Positions 10,564-64,000 of a DNA stretch of 64,000 nucleotides are shown here, piece after piece (position 1 is the first letter of the stretch; each line of letters begins with the position of its first letter). The notes under the pieces are model-generated. The model saw nothing but the letters and a program-made list of their open reading frames with translations, was not told the origin of the DNA and did not search any database. The translations under genes were made by a program, and so were the position numbers. The DNA is from Macrostomum hystrix. Taxonomy: Eukaryota; Animalia; Platyhelminthes. Location of the stretch: contig CATNEN010000038.1 in NCBI GenBank assembly GCA_950097015.1, positions 28,396,001 through 28,460,000 on the forward strand, in the 5' to 3' direction.

Positions 10564-12675
10564 CACAGATACTATAATAACTAGATAGGTCACTCAACAC
10601 ATACTTGCAAGCTACTTTCAATTCAGTAGAAATATAGACATTTTTTGTATTTTTTGGTTTTATTTATAAAAGCAGAGGGTTGCTAATCGCTGTGGCTCGG
10701 GGTCATCAGCAAGTTTTTCATGCAACAGCTTGATCGTCTTTTGGCAGACACCTGCAGGGGATGAAAAGAACTGCCGAGTTCGTCTCTTCAGTGATGACTC
10801 GGATGGAAGTGGAAACTTCCACTTGTTGCGCAGCATTCGGTACGCAGTACGCTGGGCTCTTGTGGTGCAGCTGAATTGATTCAGAAATATACTTTTTTGC
10901 GATTGAATTCGTCCAAACTGCAAAACCCTTCGTCCACTAACGCTTTCTTAATGGGAGCTAAATTTAGATCATACCATAGACAACCGTGTTCACGCAAAAC
11001 GGTTCATCCAGTTTGTAAAACATTTCGTCTAAACCCTTCGTCCAAACAGCTAACAGTTAAACGGAGCGACTTTATTTGATATCACGAGATATTGAACAAA
11101 GCAAAAACAGTGTCTCTTGTTAGAATGTTAGTTCAAAATGTCTTCGTAGTCCAAACAGCGGCCGTAGTAACCCACAGTGTGATTGGTCCATTGCTGGCAC
11201 TTCTCCTGTGTAATCACGTGCAGTGCAGCTTCGACCTCTCTCTTCAAAATGTGCATCCGCCAGGCATGCAGAGTCAGGTTCGCAGCAGCAGCAGCTTGCC
11301 GATTAGAGAGCTCGTGCTGAATAGCGGGAACTGACATTGCCCTCTTCACTGATGCCTTCAGGGAAGACCCTGCGCGCTCAGTTGGGTTGAGATACGGAGA
11401 GTACGGTGGCAATTGATAGGTGCTGTGTTGCGGTGAAAGTCCAGGGACTTGAAGGTGAGCGCGGGCCCCATCAAAGATCGCCACCCACTCAGCCTCCACC
11501 AGGATATCCAGCTCTACTAAGAAGTCTGCAAATTTTGAGCTTGAAAATCTCCTTCCACCAGCGCATAGTGAACAAGTCCCCATTGCGGAGATATGGCCAA
11601 GCAGAGAGTCAGGTTTTGTCCGCGCTGGCCACATACCGTTCTCACCGCAGGCTGGCCTCGATATGCCCATCCTTGAGTTCTCGCCGTCCACAGGTTCAGC
11701 CCGAACTCATCGAGAAAAATCTGGTTCCTGTCGTGTCCTTCGTTCATCATCCACTGTGCGTACTCACATCTCGCCGTCTTCACAACTGGGTCGTTCCAAT
11801 CAAACGTAATCTGCCTAGCCAGCTTCAAAGTCACCAGCTGTTTGTCAAGTGCTCGACTTATGGTTGAGACATGAGGAAGTTGGCCTTCATTGCCAAGTTG
11901 CATCAGATGGTTCCGCATCATTTGTAATGTCGCGGACGGGTTTGCCTCGAGGAACTCGATGATTGACTCAATCTGCTGCTCTTGAAGTTGCTTCGGACGG
12001 CCACCTGCTGATGGAAGCTTCTCAATGCGCCCGGCTTGAACGTAGTTGTCGACAATCGTTTTGGCTGTCTTTCTCTTGATCCCAAGGATATCGGCCAGTT
12101 GTTTCCAATCGCGGCCTTCTTCAACAGCCAAGGGCCAAGGCTAATCGCCTGTGGTCTTCGTTTGACACTGGATCGTAGGGGCCTTGGTTCATCTTCGACT
12201 GTTTTGCCGGGTTCAGAATGGAAGATATGCGTTGCTGTAGCTGTAGTGGTAGCAAAAGCGAACTGTCAATTGGGTGTTAACTATGGATGGTAGGAACAGT
12301 ACACTCGGTCTCTAGTCTAGGGGACGAAATGTTTTACAAACTGGATGAACCGTTTTGCGTGAACACAGTTGTCTATGGTATGATCTAAATTTAGCTCCCA
12401 TTAAGAAAGCATTTGTGGATGAAAGGTTTTGCAGTTTGGACGAATTAAATCGCAAAAAGGTATATTTTCCTATTCAGAAATACCGGTAGGCGCAGTAGGC
12501 CTAGCTTCTGGCCATAGATACTATAATAGCCACACAAACCACACAAGCCAACCCACTGCCTTTCTTTCGTATAATATAGCTTCTGGATTCTTTACTTGCT
12601 ACTGAACTGAAAGTAGAAAAACGAAAAAGCAAGGACATTTGCGAAAGTGACCTATCTAGTTATTATGTATCTGTG
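10564..12675 (-). mobile_element. P-element/THAP9-like DNA transposon (internally deleted), nested in the mariner
   Basis: About 31-bp TIRs CACAGATAC(T)ATAATAACTAGATAGGTCACT and an exact 8-bp TSD GGCACCAT (10556-10563 and 12676-12683). The minus-strand fragment AYRMLRNKWKFPLPSESSLKRR...RLATLCF resembles the P-transposase N-terminal region. Confidence 0.85.
10892..12460 (-). mobile_element. Tc1/IS630-like transposon with about 137-bp TIRs, frameshifted transposase (12192-11128)
   Basis: Long inverted repeats at 10892-11028 and 12324-12460 flanked by TA. HTH region (LADILGIKRKT), FLDE, IFDGARAH and LPPYSPYLNPTE catalytic motifs. Two frameshifts. Confidence 0.9.
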
Positions 12676-26414: not shown

Positions 26415-29400
26415 TCATAGATCTTTGTCCTCCAGGTACTTATACTCGAAAGTGAACTCGCGGCGCTTCTGCGTCGCCTTCTCGTAGTCGTAGTAGACAT
26501 AGATGCCCTTCTCGAAGTCGTCTGTGATAGTCTTGGGCTCCTCGTGGCGCTGAAACCACATCAGGTATTTGGTGTGGAATCGCCAGGACATCTTTTTCAG
26601 GGTCTTGGCCGCCAGGTACTGAGCCTTTGTGCCCTCGAAGTAGTAGAAGATAAAGAATAAAGTGTGCACATCCAGGCGAGCGTAGAACTCTTCAGTGTCC
26701 ATGCCAGGCGGCGGCGACTGCGGATAATAGAACGGCACCTGGGTCGGGTTGTGTGTCGTGTGCTGTCTAAACCTTTCGGAGTCGGCCGCATGTGGCAGCT
26801 TCTTGAAGCCGTTCTCCAGCTTGCTTAAAGCCTCCTGGAGCCTGGGTGGCGTTTGGGAGCGCAGAGGCGCAGCGATGGACATTGGATCTAAGCGAATGGT
26901 CTGCAACTGCTGCTGCTGCACAGCTGCCGTTATATAAGACTGATGATAGCCAGCTACAGAGCCCATTGGTTGAATGCCCGCCTGTTGCGGCTGCTGCTGT
27001 TGTCGGGCAAGGATAGCCTGCGATGACAGCTGCTTCAGATCGGCCGGATGAGTCTGGTCAGTTGACTGGCCAAAGAAGCTGCTTGCGGTGGTCATTGACG
27101 CTGCTGCGGCCGCGGCGGCGGCGGCGGCGGCTGCAGCAGCTGCCTGCTGCTGCTGAAGTAGAAGATGCTGCTGCTGCACAGTGGTGGCGGCGGCCGCTGT
27201 GGCTGCCAGACTGCGAATGCCTCCAGTGCGCTGCTGCTGCTGCTGCTGCAGTAGTGGCTCAATTCCGCTAGCAGTTGCGTCACCGCTAGATAACAAAGAT
27301 GAGACCGATTGCTGCTGCTGCTGCAAAAGTCCCACCTGGCTCAGCCTAAGGAGAGACTGCAGACCGCTGGCACCGCTGGCGCCGCCCTGACTACTAGACT
27401 GGGAATTGCCACTACCACCTAAAATACGGAGCAATTTACATGTATTGCATGACATTTTTAGCACCCGACGACACGTTATTCCAAGGTAGCAGCGAAGTGC
27501 ACTCACCAAGATTAGAGAACACGTCCTGAGACTTTAGTTGGCCTCCTGATAGCATGGACGGAGATGCCACCTCGGACACGGAAGCTGTTGAACCCTCCCG
27601 ATCCGAGCCATCGTTGGTCGCCTGACTGCTGCCGCCTCCAACTGCCGCAACAACTGCCGCAGCCGCTGTGGCCAGCTGCTGCTGCTGCTGCGATTTCAAT
27701 GCTTGCGACATGGGCGCCGAGCTAGGCAGCATTTGCTGATGACCGGGTGCTGCCACAGTCGAGTTAGATACTACAGCACTAGACATGAGCGACTGCTGCT
27801 GCTGCTGACTAGGCGGGGCCAGAGGAGGCGCCGGTGGATGAGGAGTTGTGGTGGCGGGCTGGGTAAGCGCAGACGCCGGAGGCTGCGCCGATTCAGACAA
27901 GGCAGCAGCCCCTACCACGGCCGTAACGACAGTTCGGCTTGTATTCGAAGACGCGGCTACGGTTGCGGCTGTCAGTTGACTATCGGCGGCGGAAATTGTT
28001 GATGAAGCGACAGCAGCAGGTGGTGCCCCGGCAGGTGCGGCGCCTGCAGCCGCGGTTGATGCAGCGGCGGCGGCAGTGGCCATCGAATTAGACAAAGTGG
28101 ACTCGTCGAGTGAGTCGTGCGGCGATGTAGCCAGGATTGCTAAAGAGTTTTTCAGCAATGTATTATTGGTATCAGTCATTTGAAAGAATAATGAAGACAG
28201 AGAGACAAAGTGTCAAAACATTTGAAGTAAAGTCAAGTGCCACAAATAGCAGGAAAAGGATATTGAGCTAGAAAGATTATGAAAGACAAGACTTTAGAGA
28301 ATGTAGTAAAGTGCTAGTAGAGACTGAAATGTCAGAGAATATTGTAGGGTGTCAGGGCACATTGAGTTGTCAAAGGGTTGACAGCAGAATGCGACGGGAG
28401 AACGTAGGTCGTCAGGAGAAACGCTAGGATGTTAGGATAAATCCGAGCATGTTATTGAAAATTTTAGGGTGACCGTAGGATGTCAGGGAAGACTGTAGGA
28501 TGTCAGGGAAGACTGTAGGATGTCAGGGAAGACTGTAGGATGTCAGGGAAGACTGTAGGATGTCAGGGAAGACTGTAGGATGTCAGGGAAGACTGTAGGA
28601 TGTCAGGGAAGACTGTAGGATGTCAGGGAAGACTGTAGGATGTCAGGGAAGACTGTAGGATGTCAGGGAAGACTGTAGGATGTCAGGGAAGACTGTAGGA
28701 TGTCAGGGAAGACTGTAGGATGTCAGGGAAGACCCTAGGATGTCAGGGAAGACCCTAGGATGTCAGGGAAGACCCTAGGATGACAGGGAAGACCGTAGGA
28801 TGTCTGGGAAGACCCTGGGATGCCAGGGAAGACCCTAGGATGTTAGGTCAAATCCTATGGTGTCAGTGGAAATCATAGGGTGTCAGAGTTCAGGAGTTGG
28901 CAAAACAGCTCTCATTCATCGCATAATAATTTAGCCAAGGTGACTATTCCTAGAAGTTACGGCCGCCTTACCACCAATGTCTTCCAATTCGAGATCGTCA
29001 TAGATGTTCTCGTTGTAATTCTCCCAGAAGTCGGTGTCCTCATTGTGCGTAACATAGTATTCGACATCGTCTTTGATGTCCTTCACCTGAATAAGGCAGC
29101 AAACAAAATTTGCCGCTATTCATATTTGTACTTTTAGCTTTATTAAATTAAATGAAGTAAAACGCACTTTGTCAAGCTCCAAATTATCGTTGTCTAGCAT
29201 TCTCATAATTGCTTCTAGCCGGTGAATGTGGAATCTGTGCTTGCCGATGATTTCCTTCTTGCTGTCCATTTCTTCTTGCTTCTACACGAATGTCAAACAG
29301 ATTAATTATTGAAACGATAATTCTCCTAAGTTTTTAGTAACTTAAAACAACTTACATCACGATCTAGCTTCTTCTTTTTGCTATTGGCCACCATCAATTC

Positions 29401-53700: not shown

Positions 53701-55176
53701 TAATTTCTACGAACTAGAACCTTCTCAAAACAAACCTTCATGAACTAGAACCTTCTCAAAACAAGCCTTCATGAACTAGAACCTTCTCAAAACAAACCTT
53801 CATGAACTAGAACCTTCTCAAAACAAACCTTCATGAACTAGAACCTTCTCAAAACAAACCTTCATGAACTAGAACCTTCTCAAAACAAGCCTTCATGAAC
53901 TAGAACCTTCTCAAAACAAGCCTTCATGAACTAGAACCTTCTCAAAACAAACCTTCATGAACTAGAACCTTCTCAAAACAAACCTTCATGAACTAGAACC
54001 TTCTCAAAACAAACCTTCATGAACTAGAACCTTCTCAAAACAAACCTTCATGAACTAGAACCTTCTCAAAACAAACCTTCATGAACTAGAACCTTCTCAA
54101 AACAAACCTTCATGAACTAGAACCTTCTCAAAACAAACCTTTATGAACTAGAACCTTCTCAAAACAAACCTTCATGAACTAGAACCTTCTCAAAACAAGC
54201 CTTCATGAACTAGAACCTTCTCAAAACAAGCCTTCATGAACTAGAACCTTCTCAAAACAAGCCTTCATGAACTAGAACCTTCTCAAAACAAACCTTCATG
54301 AACTAGAACCTTCTCAAAACAAACCTTTATGAACTAGAAGCTTCTCAAAACAAACCTTCATGAACTAGAACCTTCTCAAAACAGGCCTTCATGAACTAGA
54401 AGCTTCTCAAAACAAACCTTAATGAACTAGAACCTTCTCAAAACAAACCTTCATGAACTAGAACCTTCTCAAAACAAACCTTCATGAACTAGAACCTTCT
54501 CAAAACAAACCTTAATGAACTAGAAGCTTCTCAAACCTAACCTTCATGAACTAGAACCTTCTCAAAACAAGCCTTCATGAACTAGAACCTTCTCAAAACA
54601 AGCCTTCATGAACTAGAACCTTCTCAAAACAAACGTTAATGAACTAGAAGCTTCTCAAACCTAACCTTCATGAACTAAAGCCTTCTTCATTGTCTTTTTC
54701 TTGAGTATAGTTCATTTCAAAACATGCACTATGAAGATTAAAAATTACCGACTTGCCTCTCTTTGCCGATTAACCCTAGTCTCGTTTTTCAGTATAAACT
54801 TTCCGTCTCGATCGTCTTTGCCCCAGTTGAGCTGCACAAGCAGTGGCCGATCGTTCTCAGACAATCGCCTCTCATCGCCATTTGAGTGCACCTCGTAAAG
54901 GCCGTAGATGTCGCAGCCGAGCATCTTCAAGTCGGGATGAAATTTCTCAACTAGGGGACCAATGAGGTCGCGAGTTGTAGCCGTGCTGGACACGCGCAAG
55001 CATTTAGTCTGGTATTTCTGATCGTCGCCTTGAAAATAGAAGCGCATGGCGCCAAAGAATTCCAGATTCTGATTTGGGAAAGAGATTTCGAATAGGTCCA
55101 AACGATTCTCGTTCCATTCTCGAATACGATTGATGAGCTCAATGCGCTCAGTCTCAAGCTGTGAGGCCGACTGCAT
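35736..55176 (-). CDS. AFDN: Afadin / canoe / AF-6 (RA1-RA2-FHA-DIL-PDZ plus proline/coiled-coil tail); 16 predicted coding exons
   Basis: Exons 55176-54757, 53207-52992, 52081-51767, 50390-49658, 48982-48450, 46842-46538, 45066-44631, 43527-43213, 42851-41512, 41094-40755, 39508-39098, 38254-38201, 38096-38031, 37931-37659, 36870-36580 and 35951-35736. Diagnostic motifs: [98 protein letters not shown]...[31 protein letters not shown]. Confidence 0.95.
35968..36537 (+). repeat. Degenerate tandem repeat containing 28S rRNA-like blocks (afadin last intron)
   Basis: Four copies of (GG)TAAATGGCGGGAGTAACTATGACT...GCTCGTCATCTTATTAGTCC at about 35969, 36298, 36401 and 36489, plus a partial copy near 36070. 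Confidence 0.75.
37140..37620. repeat. 13-bp purine-rich intronic minisatellite (GACAGGAGAGGTA)
   Basis: Tandem array visible directly. Confidence 0.9.
38310..39000. repeat. 24-bp intronic minisatellite (TATACCTGCCATTCTAGATCCCAA)
   Basis: Tandem array visible directly. Confidence 0.95.
39560..40745. repeat. 24-bp intronic minisatellite (GAAGGCTGAGATGAAGGGAGGAGT)
   Basis: Tandem array visible directly. Confidence 0.95.
43600..43760 (-). mobile_element. SINE family 1 fragment abutting a 30-bp minisatellite
   Basis: CACACAGGTGTGTACATCTGTCCTGACTTTCTCATCGTCAGGCAGTGTACAC block. Confidence 0.7.
43763..44570. repeat. 30-bp intronic minisatellite (GTATAGGGATTTCGGTAC[G/A]TAGCACCAAGA)
   Basis: Near-perfect tandem array. 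Confidence 0.95.
45110..46460. repeat. 21-bp intronic minisatellite (TTATGATTATGAATGGGATTC)
   Basis: Tandem array. Source of the (MIMNGIL)n ORFs. Confidence 0.95.
46897..48330. repeat. 45/46-bp intronic minisatellite (CATAGATCCCACTTTACTCAGGGATGAGGAATCTGGGATTTCAAT)
   Basis: Tandem array visible directly. Confidence 0.95.
49205..49545 (-). mobile_element. tRNA-derived SINE family 1, most complete copy
   Basis: The minus strand begins GGGGTCCGTGGCAGAGCGGTTAACGCG (A box) ...AGTTCGATTTC (B box), followed by the body shared with about 10 other copies and an AT-rich tail. Confidence 0.85.
50620..51700. repeat. 30-bp intronic minisatellite (GAGGATCTGGGAGGATTGGGACTCGAACCA)
   Basis: Tandem array visible directly. 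Confidence 0.95.
52245..52546 (-). mobile_element. tRNA-derived SINE family 2 with a CORE/Meta-like central domain
   Basis: Minus strand has a tRNA-like head with GGTTCGAGTC B box, then TGTGTCATTTAGCAAGACACTTAAC...CACCCAGCTGTTAAATGGGTACC and an (ATT)n tail. The domain name is from recall, not a search. Confidence 0.7.
52745..52905 (+). mobile_element. SINE family 1 fragment
   Basis: CCAAGGCACAG...GAGAAAGTCAG...GCAGAATTGCCTCCTCACTGGCTGCGGG blocks. Confidence 0.7.
53710..54680. repeat. 31-bp intronic minisatellite (GAACTAGAACCTTCTCAAAACAAACCTTCAT)
   Basis: Tandem array visible directly. Confidence 0.95.
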
Positions 55177-56633: not shown

Positions 56634-58284
56634 CAAGTAAGAAAGGTTTTTGACAGTAAAAAGTGACTTAGGTTAAGTGGCCTTAGATCATTTTTACAAC
56701 TTATATTTTTTTATTACAAGCATGCAAATTGTTTTTTAATATCTACACATAGCATGCTTTAGACTATAGATATTGAAAGCATTGAAAATAAAATAATTCA
56801 GTTTAAACATACACATGTGCATTAGAGAAATAATATTATATAATATTATTCATAATTTATAAACTTATAGTTACACTGTTACCTACACTGAGCAACAGCA
56901 ACAGTTGAACTCAAAATGACACCCCTAGCGAGAGGTGAAGTTTGCTCTTACTTGTACAAATAATGCAAATTACTCAATACATAGGAAAAATTGTAAATAG
57001 GCCTAGGGGCAAATGGTTGGTCATTATTGATGCTAGCTTTAGATTATACTAATAAATGATTACTAGAGGTTTTATATTTAACTTGATTGTTTAGTGTTTG
57101 CAACTCTATATGAGTAAAATTATTGCCCCCCAACCAAGGGTAGCTTTAGAAGTTTAGTAGCATAAAATTTGTTAAATTAAAATTGCTGGGTATAAAAGTA
57201 AACTTTCAATATAATCATGTCCAAGCTGCGATTAGACTGTTGCATTGAGATTTTATTGAGCATGGGTATGAAAAAATTTCACTCTCAATGGAGAAAACTT
57301 TTTACAGAGTTCAAGAGTTGCCAGTTGGATTTAATTTGGGGGAGTTGACAGTTCAGGGAGGGAGACGGAGTCTACAATGGGTAAACTTTCCAAATTTGCT
57401 ACTGGGGCGTATATTAAGAGCTTTTAAGCAATGGGTCAACATTTAGATTTGCGGGAGGAAGTTATATTTGGGTAGTTTGCCAAATGCCCATAAAGGATAT
57501 TTTGCTATTATTTGACTCATAGCTAGTGTTCTGGCTATATTAGTAGCTAAAAAAATACTCGGCATACTGAGTTAGCAATATACTTAAAATAAATTATGCG
57601 TCTCAAAGGGCTGGAAACTTGCTCGTCACAAACTTAAATGCTGCGACTGGCACAGTATATGTCTCGGTGCGGACGATATAAAATTACATTTTCATGTGTA
57701 ATTAGCTATATCCTCAAAGCGTTTGTAACTAAAAATTAATCAGAAGCTTTTCTTCTAAAATTAAAAGCGACGTGTCATTATTCTTTAGGATTTATCGTTT
57801 GCAAGTAGTTAGTAGTGGTAATAATAACAAGCAGACTATTATTCATTAAACAATTAGTAAAAACAAGTTAAGCAACGCCCAATTTCTTCTTCCGCAAGGC
57901 AATTAAAACATCGTAATTGTAGTATTTCTAAAACTTTATTGGATTTATGCCTTATATATTTAATTTGTGCATGAAATTGGCATTAAATAATTATTGATTA
58001 GTTTAATATATATATTATTTAAAATATATATGTCACTAACTATTTTGCTAACTATTGTCACTAACTATGTGCGTGTCTTCCGGCAAAAACAAATAACTTT
58101 TTTGCCATTACAATAGTTAACTTTATCGACTTTAATGCAAATAAAGTCATTTCGGGTAAAAATGACTCCGTCAATATTAAGTGAATTTTTCCACAACAAG
58201 TGATTACTACATAATGTATATGTAATGAACAGCTATGTGGCTGATTCGTTCTAATTACCTTCGACAGTGGCACGTGCGTAGATA

Positions 58285-59409
58285 TACAACAACAACAACA
58301 ACAAAGTACGACAACCCGAGGCGGAAACCAAAGGGGCTGTCGTCAAAAGGCACGCGCAAGAGCAGAGTGGTGCAGAATTGTCAGTCCGCGGGGGTCGGAG
58401 ATTCTAGCGTCAGTCAGTAGCAGGTCAGGATAGCGTAGCGCCCTCGCCTGACCACGCCGCCGGGGCCCCCGCAGGGAAAGCAGCAGCGCGTCCTGCAGTG
58501 GCTCAGGGCAGCGCTGCTCCGCACGGATGACGTGGCCAGTCAGCTGCAGGCGCCAGATGCCCAGCAGCTGCAGACTTGGCTGGCAGAGCTGGGCCCGGCG
58601 ATAGAGCACATCGTTGCTGTGTTGGTGACGGCAGTCGGGGAATAGTGGACGCCGAAGGCGGCTCGCAGGAGTCCGGCATGGGCGGCATCGAGTTGCCATT
58701 CTTGCGTGCCATTCAGAGTCCACGTTTGAGCGTTGTAGAGAAGGACGGTCTCTATGACGGCTTGTAACAACCGCCCTCTCAGCCGATCCGGCAGCGTGGG
58801 GCACTGCAGGACAGTCCGCAGGGTGCGAAAGGCTGCCCAGGCAAGCGCCCTGCGTCGCGCCATGTCGTCCAGGGTGTCGGGCACTTGACCGCCAAGATAA
58901 ATGAAGGCTCGCAGCGCGGCAGCAGTACCGCTTGCCCATTTACGTTGTGGCAGAAGATCTCGCCGTTGAGGTCATTCGGGACGGTCAGCACCATTGTTTT
59001 CTTGGTGTTAACAGACAGCCCGACTACTGCCGCTGTCGCAGTCAGCTTGTCCAGCAGATGCTGAGCACCTTCGATTGAGCTGGACAGCAGCGGCAGGTCG
59101 TCCGCGTACGCCAGGACAGAGTCGTCTTTCGGGGTGTCGGCTGCTTGTCCTGCGACAGAGCAGAAAGCCGTTAGCGTCGTCAGGAAGGCCGGTGCGCAGC
59201 ACCCAGTCCAGGACCAGGACGAACAGAAAGGGAGCGAGGGTGTCGCGCTGCAGCACACCGGAGGTCGTGTCGAAGATATCGGACAGACCGTCCGGCTTCA
59301 CCACTGCCGCCCTGGTCTCCTGGTACAGGGCCATCACAGCCGTTACCAGCTGGTCAGGCACATGGTACGCGCGCAGGATCTTCGGGATGACCCGTCTCGA
59401 CATCGAGTC
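58285..59409 (-). mobile_element. RTE-like non-LTR retrotransposon, 3' half of the reverse transcriptase, frameshifted
   Basis: Motifs DSMSR..IPKILRAY, GVLQRDTLAPFLF.LVLDW, LAYADDL, GLSVNTKKT and VLLYNAQTW, with a (TTG)n 3' tail at about 58287-58304. Confidence 0.85.
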
Positions 59410-60103
59410 TATAAGACTTAGAAATCTGAAGGGAATTTAAGAGTTCGTCAGCGGGAAGCGAAAGCAAAAAATAGCAACAGCAGAAAGTGCGAGCAACCGA
59501 AAGGAGAATGATTAGACAAAATCCGCCCCCCAGAGATTAACTATTCATTTCAGCGCAGGCCCGGTTCGGCATGACAGCAGCTGTGCCGACGTGGAGCTGG
59601 CTGAGACCGGATCCGCAGAGGCGCCGACGTGGAGCTGCCGGAGACCGGATCCGCAGCTGTGCTGACGTGGAATGGCCCGAGACCGGAACGCAGCTGCGCT
59701 GACGTGGAGCTCCCGGAATCAACCCGGCCTACCCCGACCTGCAGCTGCCTGCATCGACCCAGCCCAGTCTGAAATTGGAGCCGCCCGGACCCGATCGGGA
59801 ACGAGATCTGGAGGAGGCCGGAACCGCACAAGAAGACTGGATCGATGAAGGGAAAGGGGATAATGAACAGTAGGAAAGAGGTCTCAGTAGAATTGGGAAC
59901 GCATCCTAACTCAACTAAGGTATTTTCAGGACTTTTCCCCACCTCCCATAGAAAATGGGTTGGCGTGCCTGCTAACCAACTAGTTTAATGACAACAACTG
60001 TACTAGACTCGAGGCTGCGACCTCACTCACCCCAAATTCTCATGCGTACTGTTGCTATGGTATTTTCTTCCCCTCGGATCGAGGGTTTTAAAGACATTAT
60101 ATA
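59410..60103 (+). mobile_element. Putative 5' LTR of the gag-env element, followed by a PBS-like TGGTGCGGAGCGCG at 60107
   Basis: Begins exactly where the RTE RT is cut off, has short inverted ends TATAA...TTATA and internal about 38-bp ACGTGG repeats (59577-59716), and is followed by a TGG-starting PBS-like motif. The second LTR would be outside the window. Confidence 0.4.
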
Positions 60104-61589
60104 TATTGGTGCGGAGCGCGGAAAAAGATTCGCCGCTCCAGTTAGTTAGAGACTCACTTTGAGCTCCGTTTAGAAAATCATTGTGTTTGCGTTCTTTCTT
60201 AAGTAGAATCAGTGATAACGATCTAGAGATATCACCACTGCCAGCCGGTATACTGAGTATCGATAGTCGTTAGGAGTTATAGCCTTCAAGACTTTTAGAC
60301 TGCAATAAACCGCTAGACAAAGTATAGGAAAACTACGAGTGAAGAAGAAGAGGAACACCAAACTTGAAGCGCTATACGTGGTTCCCAGACCTACGAGTCA
60401 TCTAGTAAGCAGTCTACAATTTTCAACCTGACGACATCGACCAGTAATGGCTGAGTAATTTCCGACGGTGGAGGAAGGAACGCGGAAGGCCAGGATGAGT
60501 GCTGTCATACAATTGTTTCTCTACTAAGTATATTACATCGTGTCGTAAGAGGACATGTGCGTTTTTTATTGGAAAATTTAACAAAAAAATTGACAAAACT
60601 ATTAAAAATGAACAAAAAAAGTAGAGTAGATTTGTACAAAGCTATACGGTATGATTTTCCTTAGTAGAGAAATATTTAGCGGCTGGTGAAACAAGTCACC
60701 AAGGCCGCGCATCAATAGCGAGGGGCTACCAGGAAGTTGTTTAAATAGGACTATAGTCGAACTATTATAAAAGGTGTACTCATTTAAAGAATTCAGGCAG
60801 CGCTGACCAGCATTACCACATATTAAAGCTTAGGCTCTAAAAAGGAGCTTTCGCAGGAGCCGGCCGACTCATCACAGGTAAAGGACCTGTCAAATGATAT
60901 GCAGCATTAAAAGTACACCGTATAGGGCTTTTCATTATTATAGCGCGCTTCAATAGGCTCAGTAGGATAGTAGACCTTCTGAGGGGAGTTCATACTCTTG
61001 GCACTAAGGACTGCGCGGACACAGAGGGGGGAAGAACTCACTTAGGCTCTGTACACTGCGTCTATCTGACTCCGCTCTCCAGCAAACGCGACAGCCCGCC
61101 CATAGCGCTGTTGATCTACTACAAGGCGTGTTAGGGTAAGTATTTGTGCCCCAACCTAGGTAGCCAGTCCAGGAGACAACCTCGAGGCATTTCTGAATAA
61201 AATTGAAATGCATAGCCCAACTAGCCAATAAGGCAGAAAGCGGAAAACGCTTAATCATTAAAAGTGCATGTATATAAAAGGCTGCAACCATATTACTTAA
61301 CGATTACTTAATGACTTTGCGACATGCGAGACAAAATGCACTCACTCATTTGTATAAAGCAGGAAAATTTACATATTGACAGCACCACCTGGCCGGAAAC
61401 GTATCCGATACCTCTACCCCTTTTCTCATATTTGAATTTCACTTAAACCTTTTGTGAGATCTCAAGATAAATCAGAGCACACACTGACAAGATATTTTGC
61501 TGAAGTCAAGCTGATTAAATACGCATCACTTACATTCATATCATTTGCGGCCAACTCCGCAAAGAACCAATAGACCGGAATATCAGTAT

Positions 61590-64000
61590 ATGAATAACGG
61601 AGATCTAAACCAAGACATTCAAACAGGTACTAACAGAACTCCAGAACCCGGAGACGCCGATCAGCAACAACTGCCACACGACCAGTTAGATCAGCCAGAA
61701 GACCACAACGACGAGTGGGAAAACAACAACGAGCATTCATCAGACTCGGAAAACGAGGACAACGCAATGGAAGATCTCCAGAACCAAGTCCGGGAACTAC
61801 AGCAGCGTCTCGCCATGGCACACGGCAGGGACCTACCAGCCATTGTCCAGGCTCTAAAACTGTCGGCAGGAGACTACGAAATGGGACAGCCATTTGTCAA
61901 ATGGCTGACTGAGTTCGAACTACAAACAGCGACATATGGCCTAACCGACGAAGAGAAGTGTCGATTACTACCACTCATGCTGCGCCCTAACGCCCGTAAT
62001 CAATACACGGGACTCCCACAAGCTGTCCGAGAAGACTACGGACAGGTGAGAACACAACTCCGAGAGCTGTATGACACCAGAGCGATGGACCGACCCACGG
62101 CAGTACTCCAACTCTCCATGAGGAGGATGCACCCAGGAGAGGATGTTAACAAGTTCATCGCCGACATCACACAACTAGTCGAGAACTCAGTGTTCCAAGA
62201 ACCAGCGCCGGAGGGTGAGAATGAGAACGACAGAGGCGCAAGAATCAACCGCAACAAACGCATAGTCCAAGACCACATCATGCTGCACGTACAACAGAAT
62301 GCCACACCGGCATTGCGACTATATCTAGCCAGAGGACGTTACCAGACAGTACCGGAGATGGTGCGTGAAGCACTTCAATGGCAAGCACTGCGAGAGCTGG
62401 AACACGACTCCAACGACGTACACAAACTGACAGCCATGGTAGCCCAGATGGAGACCACGATCAGGCAAGCGGGTAAGCACTTCCAGGAGCGAGGCCAACA
62501 GCCACAGAAGGAAGATGCAACTAAGTACCCAGATGGCAATCCGAGGCCAACCTGCCAGATCTGCGACAAGATAGGCCACACAGCCAACAGGTGCTACCAA
62601 AGGAACCAGAACACCGGTAACCGGAATATCGGTAAGAGTACCGGGGGCCAAGTGCAGTCACGGGGCAGACAAGATCGAAGTAACGTTAAATGCAACAAAT
62701 GCGGAAAGAGAGGCCACTTTGCAAAAGAGTGCAGAGACCAGCGATATTGCAAGAACTGCAATATGCAGAACCATTGGACATCGGAATGCGGCAGACCACG
62801 CCAGGGTGATCAAGGACGGCATCCGCAGCAATGGCAGCAGCCAAAGCGGATCGCCGAAGTCACGGTCCAGGACCCCAGTCCGCAGCCAGCCCAACTGGCG
62901 AGTGAGTCTAGCCAGACAGCACACATCTTGGCAGTCAGCACGTGGGAAGCGACAACGCCGACAAGGACAAGAAGCGACGTCATACAAGCAAGACGACAGA
63001 ACAGGAAGAACAAGACGGCGACAATCGCCCTAGTTCAGACCGCTCCACAGCTCGAAGGACGAAAGCGAGAGCAGAGGGCTAGAAAGGCTAGTGATGGCTG
63101 GAAGGCACCAGCCGGACCGATATGCGCACTCCTGCTAAAAATACTACTCCTCGCATTGCTCTGTACCACGGCGGAGACGATAAACCCAAGACACCAGAAC
63201 TGGGTGGACACACCGATGTACTGCCCGGAGCCCTCCAGGCCACAGATCTTCAAGCTGCCACCGGACATCGAGTGCAAGATGCCTAGCAGCATACAGCAGC
63301 ACCGACAGCCGATCAACCTGGCAATCTTTAGACCAAACCAGGTCACTCACCGATCAACACTCAAGATCTGTTACCGAGAAACGTATGTCTTCACCAGCGT
63401 AGCATTAAAAACGATTGCCGCTAAAGTGGTAAGACCAGAAATGACTGTTACGGTCCAGAAACATCTAGTTTCAGAGGAAGATTGTGAGTCCTGGGAGGAA
63501 GGTTACCGAACTCCAGATGGCATCCTTGAAGAAGATGGGAAAGCCCCGAACAAAGCTGAACGTTTCACTACTCACATCTGGACAACAGAGGAATTCGACC
63601 CAACGGCTAGTACCCAAACTAGATATACGAAATCCGCGTCCACGCTGATAACGAAAATTCCGTTCTTCGTGGAGAATAAGAAAATGTCATCGCTGTATAT
63701 CCCACTAGGACATTGCAATTACACCATAGGAAAATGTCTTCACGAGTCCACTCTACAGGCCGAGAAGGATGCGCCGCTGGAGAGACAAGTACCCAATAAA
63801 TTATGGGAAGCTCTGAGATACTACGACACACAATTCAAGGTCGCTGGAGAACGCCAGTACAGATATGCCTGGACACCCAGCGCCGCAATTGACTGCCCGT
63901 ACCAGGAAGACAGGCGAATTGAAGGAACCATACACACAGGATGGTTCATGTCCAAGGACGCTACCTACGCTTTGACTTTTAAACACCCACCACACTCAAT
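61590..64000 (+). CDS. gag-env: Retrotransposon Gag fused in frame to an envelope-like glycoprotein (ORF open to window end, at least 803 aa)
   Basis: Hand translation from ATG 61590 finds no stop before 64000. Capsid-like region (FVKWLTEFE...DYGQVRTQLRELY, RMHPGEDVNKFI), three CX2CX4HX4C knuckles (62553-62789), a basic stretch, a hydrophobic signal ICALLLKILLLALLCTTAET (63120-63179), then a Cys-rich ectodomain-like region with an N-Y-T sequon (63717). Confidence 0.85.
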   Translation, partial: MNNGDLNQDIQTGTNRTPEPGDADQQQLPHDQLDQPEDHNDEWENNNEHSSDSENEDNAMEDLQNQVRELQQRLAMAHGRDLPAIVQALKLSAGDYEMGQPFVKWLTEFELQTATYGLTDEEKCRLLPLMLRPNARNQYTGLPQAVREDYGQVRTQLRELYDTRAMDRPTAVLQLSMRRMHPGEDVNKFIADITQLVENSVFQEPAPEGENENDRGARINRNKRIVQDHIMLHVQQNATPALRLYLARGRYQTVPEMVREALQWQALRELEHDSNDVHKLTAMVAQMETTIRQAGKHFQERGQQPQKEDATKYPDGNPRPTCQICDKIGHTANRCYQRNQNTGNRNIGKSTGGQVQSRGRQDRSNVKCNKCGKRGHFAKECRDQRYCKNCNMQNHWTSECGRPRQGDQGRHPQQWQQPKRIAEVTVQDPSPQPAQLASESSQTAHILAVSTWEATTPTRTRSDVIQARRQNRKNKTATIALVQTAPQLEGRKREQRARKASDGWKAPAGPICALLLKILLLALLCTTAETINPRHQNWVDTPMYCPEPSRPQIFKLPPDIECKMPSSIQQHRQPINLAIFRPNQVTHRSTLKICYRETYVFTSVALKTIAAKVVRPEMTVTVQKHLVSEEDCESWEEGYRTPDGILEEDGKAPNKAERFTTHIWTTEEFDPTASTQTRYTKSASTLITKIPFFVENKKMSSLYIPLGHCNYTIGKCLHESTLQAEKDAPLERQVPNKLWEALRYYDTQFKVAGERQYRYAWTPSAAIDCPYQEDRRIEGTIHTGWFMSKDATYALTFKHPPHS

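Follow-up and report, generated by a model that had tools for sequence, protein, structure and literature searches.

The errantiviruses of Nematoda, Bryozoa and Platyhelminthes have been described, in the statements on envelope type and gene order of a recent survey and likewise in its bioRxiv version, as carrying only an ENV of the HSV/gB type and as following the order GAG-ENV-POL (Chary and Hayashi, eLife 2026, PMC13524379). The tables of this survey contain 36 nematode, 10 bryozoan and 9 flatworm elements, and in those rows that give LTR coordinates the outer LTR-to-LTR span is ~9.8–12.9 kb. In the Macrostomum lignano genome the same survey predicted 93 POL and 51 ENV ORFs arranged as ENV-POL (PMC13524379). 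A flipped ENV/POL order is also cited there for non-canonical endogenous retroviruses (Sacco et al. 2022, J Gen Virol, doi 10.1099/jgv.0.001739), which have nematode hosts and are likened to our locus by this cited gene order alone. The planarian Burro elements were reported as the first with an in-frame env between gag and pol, and this env shows matches to mononegavirus fusion glycoproteins (Arkhipova and Yushenova, Genome Biol Evol 2019, PMC6431247).

To these systems we compare a locus at the end of a window of 64,000 nucleotides from the flatworm Macrostomum hystrix, which is the whole stretch of DNA that was analyzed. It is very probably the 5' half of an LTR retroelement that occurs repeatedly, in which Gag continues in frame into a likely class III fusogen and pol is to be expected beyond position 64000 as in the GAG-ENV-POL layout. 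ORF calling and motif scan revealed a Gag-Env ORF of 803 aa on the forward strand (61590..64000), which is open at the window edge. No stop interrupts the underlying frame between 61515 and the last position of the window (828 codons); its first ATG is located at 61590 and Met60 at 61767 is an alternative start. The first-pass annotation of this DNA had claimed a single stop-free ORF of at least 803 codons, and this could be confirmed. Its length is far above chance: when the bases were shuffled 2000 times, the longest open forward frame had a mean of 121 and a maximum of 252 codons. The non-canonical nematode endogenous retroviruses are said to carry gag-env-pro-pol as one continuous ORF as well.

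The N-terminal part of the protein has the features of Gag. A capsid-like helical region (~aa 80–300; 61827..62489, forward strand) was recognised by ESM Atlas feature matches, and it is followed on the same strand by a nucleocapsid with three CCHC zinc knuckles (62553..62789) identified by Pfam, PDB sequence search and motif scan. The knuckles are located at aa 322–335, 368–381 and 387–400 and are those quoted in the first-pass annotation, and the PDB sequence matches of Gag are retroviral nucleocapsids. Using aa 75–410 as query, the ESM Atlas gave values of 0.92–0.94 to zf-CCHC, Ty3_capsid, Retrotrans_gag and PNMA clusters; 9 of the best 10 matches agree on the family, and Arc-like as well as PNMA clusters are among the neighbours. 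Pfam recognised the zinc knuckle and nothing else in the Gag-Env protein, leaving the capsid region blank. A single-sequence AlphaFold2 prediction of the capsid resulted in a weak model (mean pLDDT 54.3), with which Foldseek found no match at E 0.001 and VIA-align gave a best Z of 6.9 to unrelated helical bundles. The Ty3/Gypsy-like capsid proposed earlier is supported by the knuckles together with the Atlas values, with Pfam blank for this region, and the protein thereby has the capsid and CCHC nucleocapsid that membership in the errantiviruses demands.

Between Gag and the envelope part, the motif scan shows a linker of 109 residues with a basic end, no Met and no protease motif (62790..63116, forward strand). 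Its end contains 13 K+R in aa 461–510 with RKREQRARK at aa 491–499, and it is followed by a signal-peptide-like segment identified by hydropathy (aa 510–528; 63117..63173, forward strand), which is the sole strongly hydrophobic segment and reaches 2.94 in a Kyte-Doolittle 15-mer. This corresponds to the linker of about 110 residues ending in RKREQRARK, followed by a hydrophobic segment, that had been noticed before. Judged by eye, the predicted cleavage site is located after Ala528. RKREQRARK itself was considered as a furin site and rejected, because it does not fit R-x-[KR]-R and would be located on the cytosolic side. Met is absent from aa 392 to 543 and the AG acceptors of the linker are weak, which speaks neither for nor against an Env that is initiated on its own or made by splicing.

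The remaining residues up to the window edge probably form the N-terminal part of a class III fusion glycoprotein ectodomain (HSV gB-type, Monjiviricetes-like; 63174..64000, forward strand), as judged from Atlas matches and motifs. The best Atlas match of aa 530–803 is a eukaryotic cluster with PF24664 Monjiviricetes_fusion (0.90, 145/256 features), which is borderline, and the family is agreed on by only 4 of the best 10 matches; gp64 and rhabdovirus G clusters, and also unrelated viral glycoproteins, follow in the lower rows. The ectodomain contains seven cysteines (545, 562, 594, 632, 709, 716 and 769), and its motif and cysteine pattern is by eye nearest to the 17 Nematoda_c2 ENV rows of the errantivirus survey and less like its six Schmidtea C1a rows (PMC13524379). 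In all 17 of these Nematoda_c2 rows we found, by eye, the block [ILV][FYH]xxN-x10-C, which is present here with the same x10 spacing at aa 579–594 and whose IFRPN is identical in one of them. The same holds for CxxxxGxC (17/17 by eye, supplementary file 3 of PMC13524379; here aa 709–716). A third block, W-x7-C-x-Y, is located at aa 761–771 and a fourth, S-x4-Y-A-L-T-F, at aa 786–797. Across all six frames of the window the full pattern of four blocks is present a single time, at the Gag-Env ORF. In 100000 shuffles of the domain the single blocks occurred 1866, 415, 7057 and 28 times and all four in order 0 times, a result whose significance is overstated because the test was post hoc: two residue classes of the fourth block (F for W, Y), and also the gap that admits an insertion of ~33 residues, had been widened knowing the Gag-Env sequence. 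In comparison to the nematode rows, ~33 extra residues are present between the CxxxxGxC and W-x-C blocks (63744–63860), and the Platyhelminthes ENV alignment of PMC13524379 has a 39-column gap apparently at the place where this insertion falls.

Alignment-based searches of the envelope gave no relatives. A word-indexed protein search with the envelope region against proteins of 441–1406 aa (468 candidates) found none at E 0.001, nor did aa 75–803 against longer (5093) and shorter (3774) proteins at the same threshold; neither Pfam nor a PDB sequence search matched the ectodomain, and no related loci were found among viral and metagenome contigs. Single-sequence AlphaFold2 of the ectodomain reached a mean pLDDT of 29.2. 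With these searches blank and the fold prediction poor, the class III assignment is likely and not proven. Atlas, hydropathy and the shared ordered motifs support the earlier proposal that Gag is continued in the same frame by an internal signal segment and then by a glycoprotein of class III-like type.

In order to define the element around this ORF we compared the region with public runs. The Gag-Env stretch is present in 20 of them from 7 studies and 3 organisms; the best-matching run may be the source sample, and none of the runs listed is an RNA run, so they have no bearing on expression. The element sits in the broken RT fragment of a non-LTR retrotransposon on the reverse strand (58343..59409; RVT_1, E 2.1e-06, below the curated cut-off). 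The RT frame reaches 59409, and contigs of the runs X9 and X15 exit the window at this position with the RT frame going on (by eye), which makes the LTR element a clean insertion starting at 59410. At bin 59407 the summed contig depth, which is no copy number, steps up from 2–47 to 211–754 in run X1 and from 0–8 to 16–42 in run X5. Moreover, an identical stretch of 9 purine-rich letters stands just before 59410 in both X5 and X15, resembling the polypurine tract in front of a 3' LTR. From the depth step and these letters we assign a putative 5' LTR (59410..60106, forward strand), the left edge of which is shown by them and the right edge inferred from the primer-binding site, resulting in an inferred length of ~697 nt. 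Its ends look like TATA...TATA and not like TG...CA, with TATAAG at the beginning (59410–59422) and ATTATATATA at the end (60092–60106).

Within the LTR, a repeat search revealed four tandem copies of 37–38 nt (59577..59727, forward strand), of which one unit is skipped in X9 and X15, the copy number varying between runs. A heat-shock-element pattern, for which we looked after PMC12801592, was not found in the LTR, and Rfam gave one chance-level match. The LTR is followed by a primer-binding-site-like stretch with a TGG start (60107..60124, forward strand), assigned by position and LTR-element convention, and by an untranslated leader of ~1.5 kb (60125..61589, forward strand) with no ORF of at least 120 aa before 61515. 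A low-depth X1 contig skips 443 nt of this leader (60326–60770). Another X1 contig leads from 63449, inside the envelope, over 12 other letters to the LTR start at 59410, which may reflect either an LTR nested at this place or a copy with an internal deletion.

No enzymatic part of the element was detected in the window. The motif scan found none of D[ST]G, YxDD and GPY/F within the 803-aa protein, no protease-like D[ST]G[AS] context occurs in the six frames of 59410–64000, and the remaining five frames of 62700–63300 are interrupted by 2 to 8 stops apiece. This agrees with what had been claimed before, namely that no protease or RT motif lies between Gag and the signal segment and that there is no room for pol in another frame. 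The title ‘Pol-less’ given to the element at that time does not count as an observation, since the ORF runs off the window at 64000. As the distance from the LTR start to the window end is 4591 nt, compared to the published spans of ~9.8–12.9 kb, an absent pol is what the known layout predicts (PMC13524379).

The alternative with the best standing, which we nevertheless regard as improbable, would be a spreading non-autonomous family without pol, in which two LTRs enclose only a polyprotein of capsid and class III fusogen and the enzymes come from a helper. It is in line with the lack of pol within the window, with the PPT-like stretch before the LTR start in two runs, according to which a 3' LTR exists, be it near or far, and with the X1 contig from 63449 to the LTR start, if this represents an internally deleted copy. 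Against it, the window stops ~275 residues into the ectodomain, at a point where also the known GAG-ENV-POL elements still await the rest of env and pol. The published survey required pol and pol-less forms could therefore not show in it, which weakens this argument from precedent and does not remove it (PMC13524379). If pol indeed proved absent from all copies, the element would be a helper-dependent, structural-only enveloped retroelement and of real interest.

It is much less probable that the direct joining of Gag and envelope results from a private in-frame deletion, or from an assembly collapse, of an ordinary gag-pol-env element. Among the pieces listed, the whole junction is spanned only by X15 record 14, which would leave room for such an event; this contig comes, however, from another organism, covers 62738–63772 with 24/1035 letters differing and 0 gaps, and reaches from the knuckles across the signal segment and on into the ectodomain. 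Further records cover parts of the region: X1 record 7 and X5 record 20 are identical over 62318–63068, and X5 record 21 (~85% alike) and X9 records 27 and 28 (to 63017) contain most of the linker with 0 gaps. The listed records of four runs (X1, X5, X9 and X15) thus continue gap-free from the knuckles to at least 63017, and none of the 14 joints listed is located inside 62790–63120. As the comparison over 58000–64000 lists 32/385 pieces and 24/114 loose ends, and one joint is named outside the list of 14, other forms of the junction may exist. What has been published for GAG-ENV-POL elements is an envelope of this same type (PMC13524379), which also speaks against this explanation. Since the junction is bridged gap-free in the contig of another organism, it is a trait of the family, and a private deletion, which the first-pass annotation had asked to be checked in other copies, is largely refuted. 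Several diverged variants of the LTR element are present per run, with a summed contig depth far above that of the flank.

The third option raised earlier, a domesticated host gene of capsid and fusogen kept by selection for RNA transfer, may appeal by its long intact ORF amid broken elements and by the Arc-like and PNMA clusters among the Atlas neighbours, but it is the least probable of all and unsupported, as the ORF sits in a cleanly inserted, repeated LTR element that retains LTR start, PBS-like site and leader, that interrupts a broken RT gene whose uninterrupted form exists in X9 and X15, and that shows the variants and depth just mentioned, and is thus no single fixed locus without mobile-element ends as in Arc/PNMA-like domesticated Gag.

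A gag-env-pol ordered lineage, which the first-pass annotation had offered as one of three options, is the one we judge likely, and the envelope motifs are shared with published GAG-ENV-POL errantiviruses. As in those, Env comes right after Gag, and a putative LTR, a PBS-like site and several copies are present (PMC13524379). Gag and Env share one frame here, whereas the statements cited above give the order; and pol follows env there, whereas here the window ends inside env. Platyhelminthes_Rhabditophora_Mlig_errantivirus_2, the one element listed for Macrostomum (M. lignano) in the same survey, has an HSV-type ENV, 16 copies and ~10.6 kb between the outer LTR ends. With an LTR of 863 nt and another PBS it differs from the element described here (~697 nt, right LTR edge inferred), which likely belongs to another family, as set apart by LTR length and PBS and not by protein. 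The Burro elements share the Gag knuckles (two or three CCHC) and the in-frame env, but in their ORFs of ~4,900–5,100 aa Gag and Env are separated by SUMO-like, BCL2-like, MATH and further domains, in contrast to the 109-residue linker here (PMC6431247). Our element does not belong to these giant elements, which are marked by extra host-like domains in an ORF of ~5,000 aa. The novelty that had been presumed for the arrangement does not hold, as the layout is already in print (PMC13524379), including an in-frame env in Burro since 2019 (PMC6431247). The element is probably a new family within the already published GAG-ENV-POL group and as such a modest addition to it. Its compactness, with 109 residues from Gag to the envelope signal, makes it a simple case for studying how a polyprotein crosses the ER and how capsid and envelope are released from each other.

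For such a GAG-ENV-POL element we propose that RNA would be made from the 5' LTR and that translation would begin at gag. Capsid and nucleocapsid would remain cytosolic together with the basic end of the linker, and aa 510–528 could serve as the internal signal by which the envelope ectodomain enters the ER. There a cut by signal peptidase near Ala528 would leave the ectodomain luminal. A later membrane anchor, located past 64000, would bring the chain back to the cytosolic side or be the last part of the ORF, and protease, RT, RNase H and integrase would be encoded downstream of this anchor. The flavivirus C-prM region would be a topological analogue of this arrangement of Gag, signal and envelope. 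Gag might stay tethered to the membrane by the signal stub until the protease of the element or a host intramembrane protease frees it, and this tethering could couple capsid assembly to the envelope-bearing membrane. The resulting enveloped particles may then carry the element from cell to cell.

Besides this element the window contains an IS630/Tc1-like transposase on the reverse strand (11128–12140), which is split over two frames and shows HTH and DDE_3 matches below the curated cut-offs. The earlier claim that every other transposon ORF of the window is broken is correct for the two elements that we checked, this transposase and the RT (58782–59297), and extends to those two. A host gene similar to CNOT3 with long Q- and A-rich tracts is located on the reverse strand at 26415–28212 (NOT2_3_5_C, E 6.2e-33), and several other Q-rich exons are found elsewhere in the window, a style that may be typical of macrostomid flatworms. 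Most of the large ORFs of the window are long simple arrays, with a 31-nt tandem repeat of ~1 kb at 53708–54686 being one of many.
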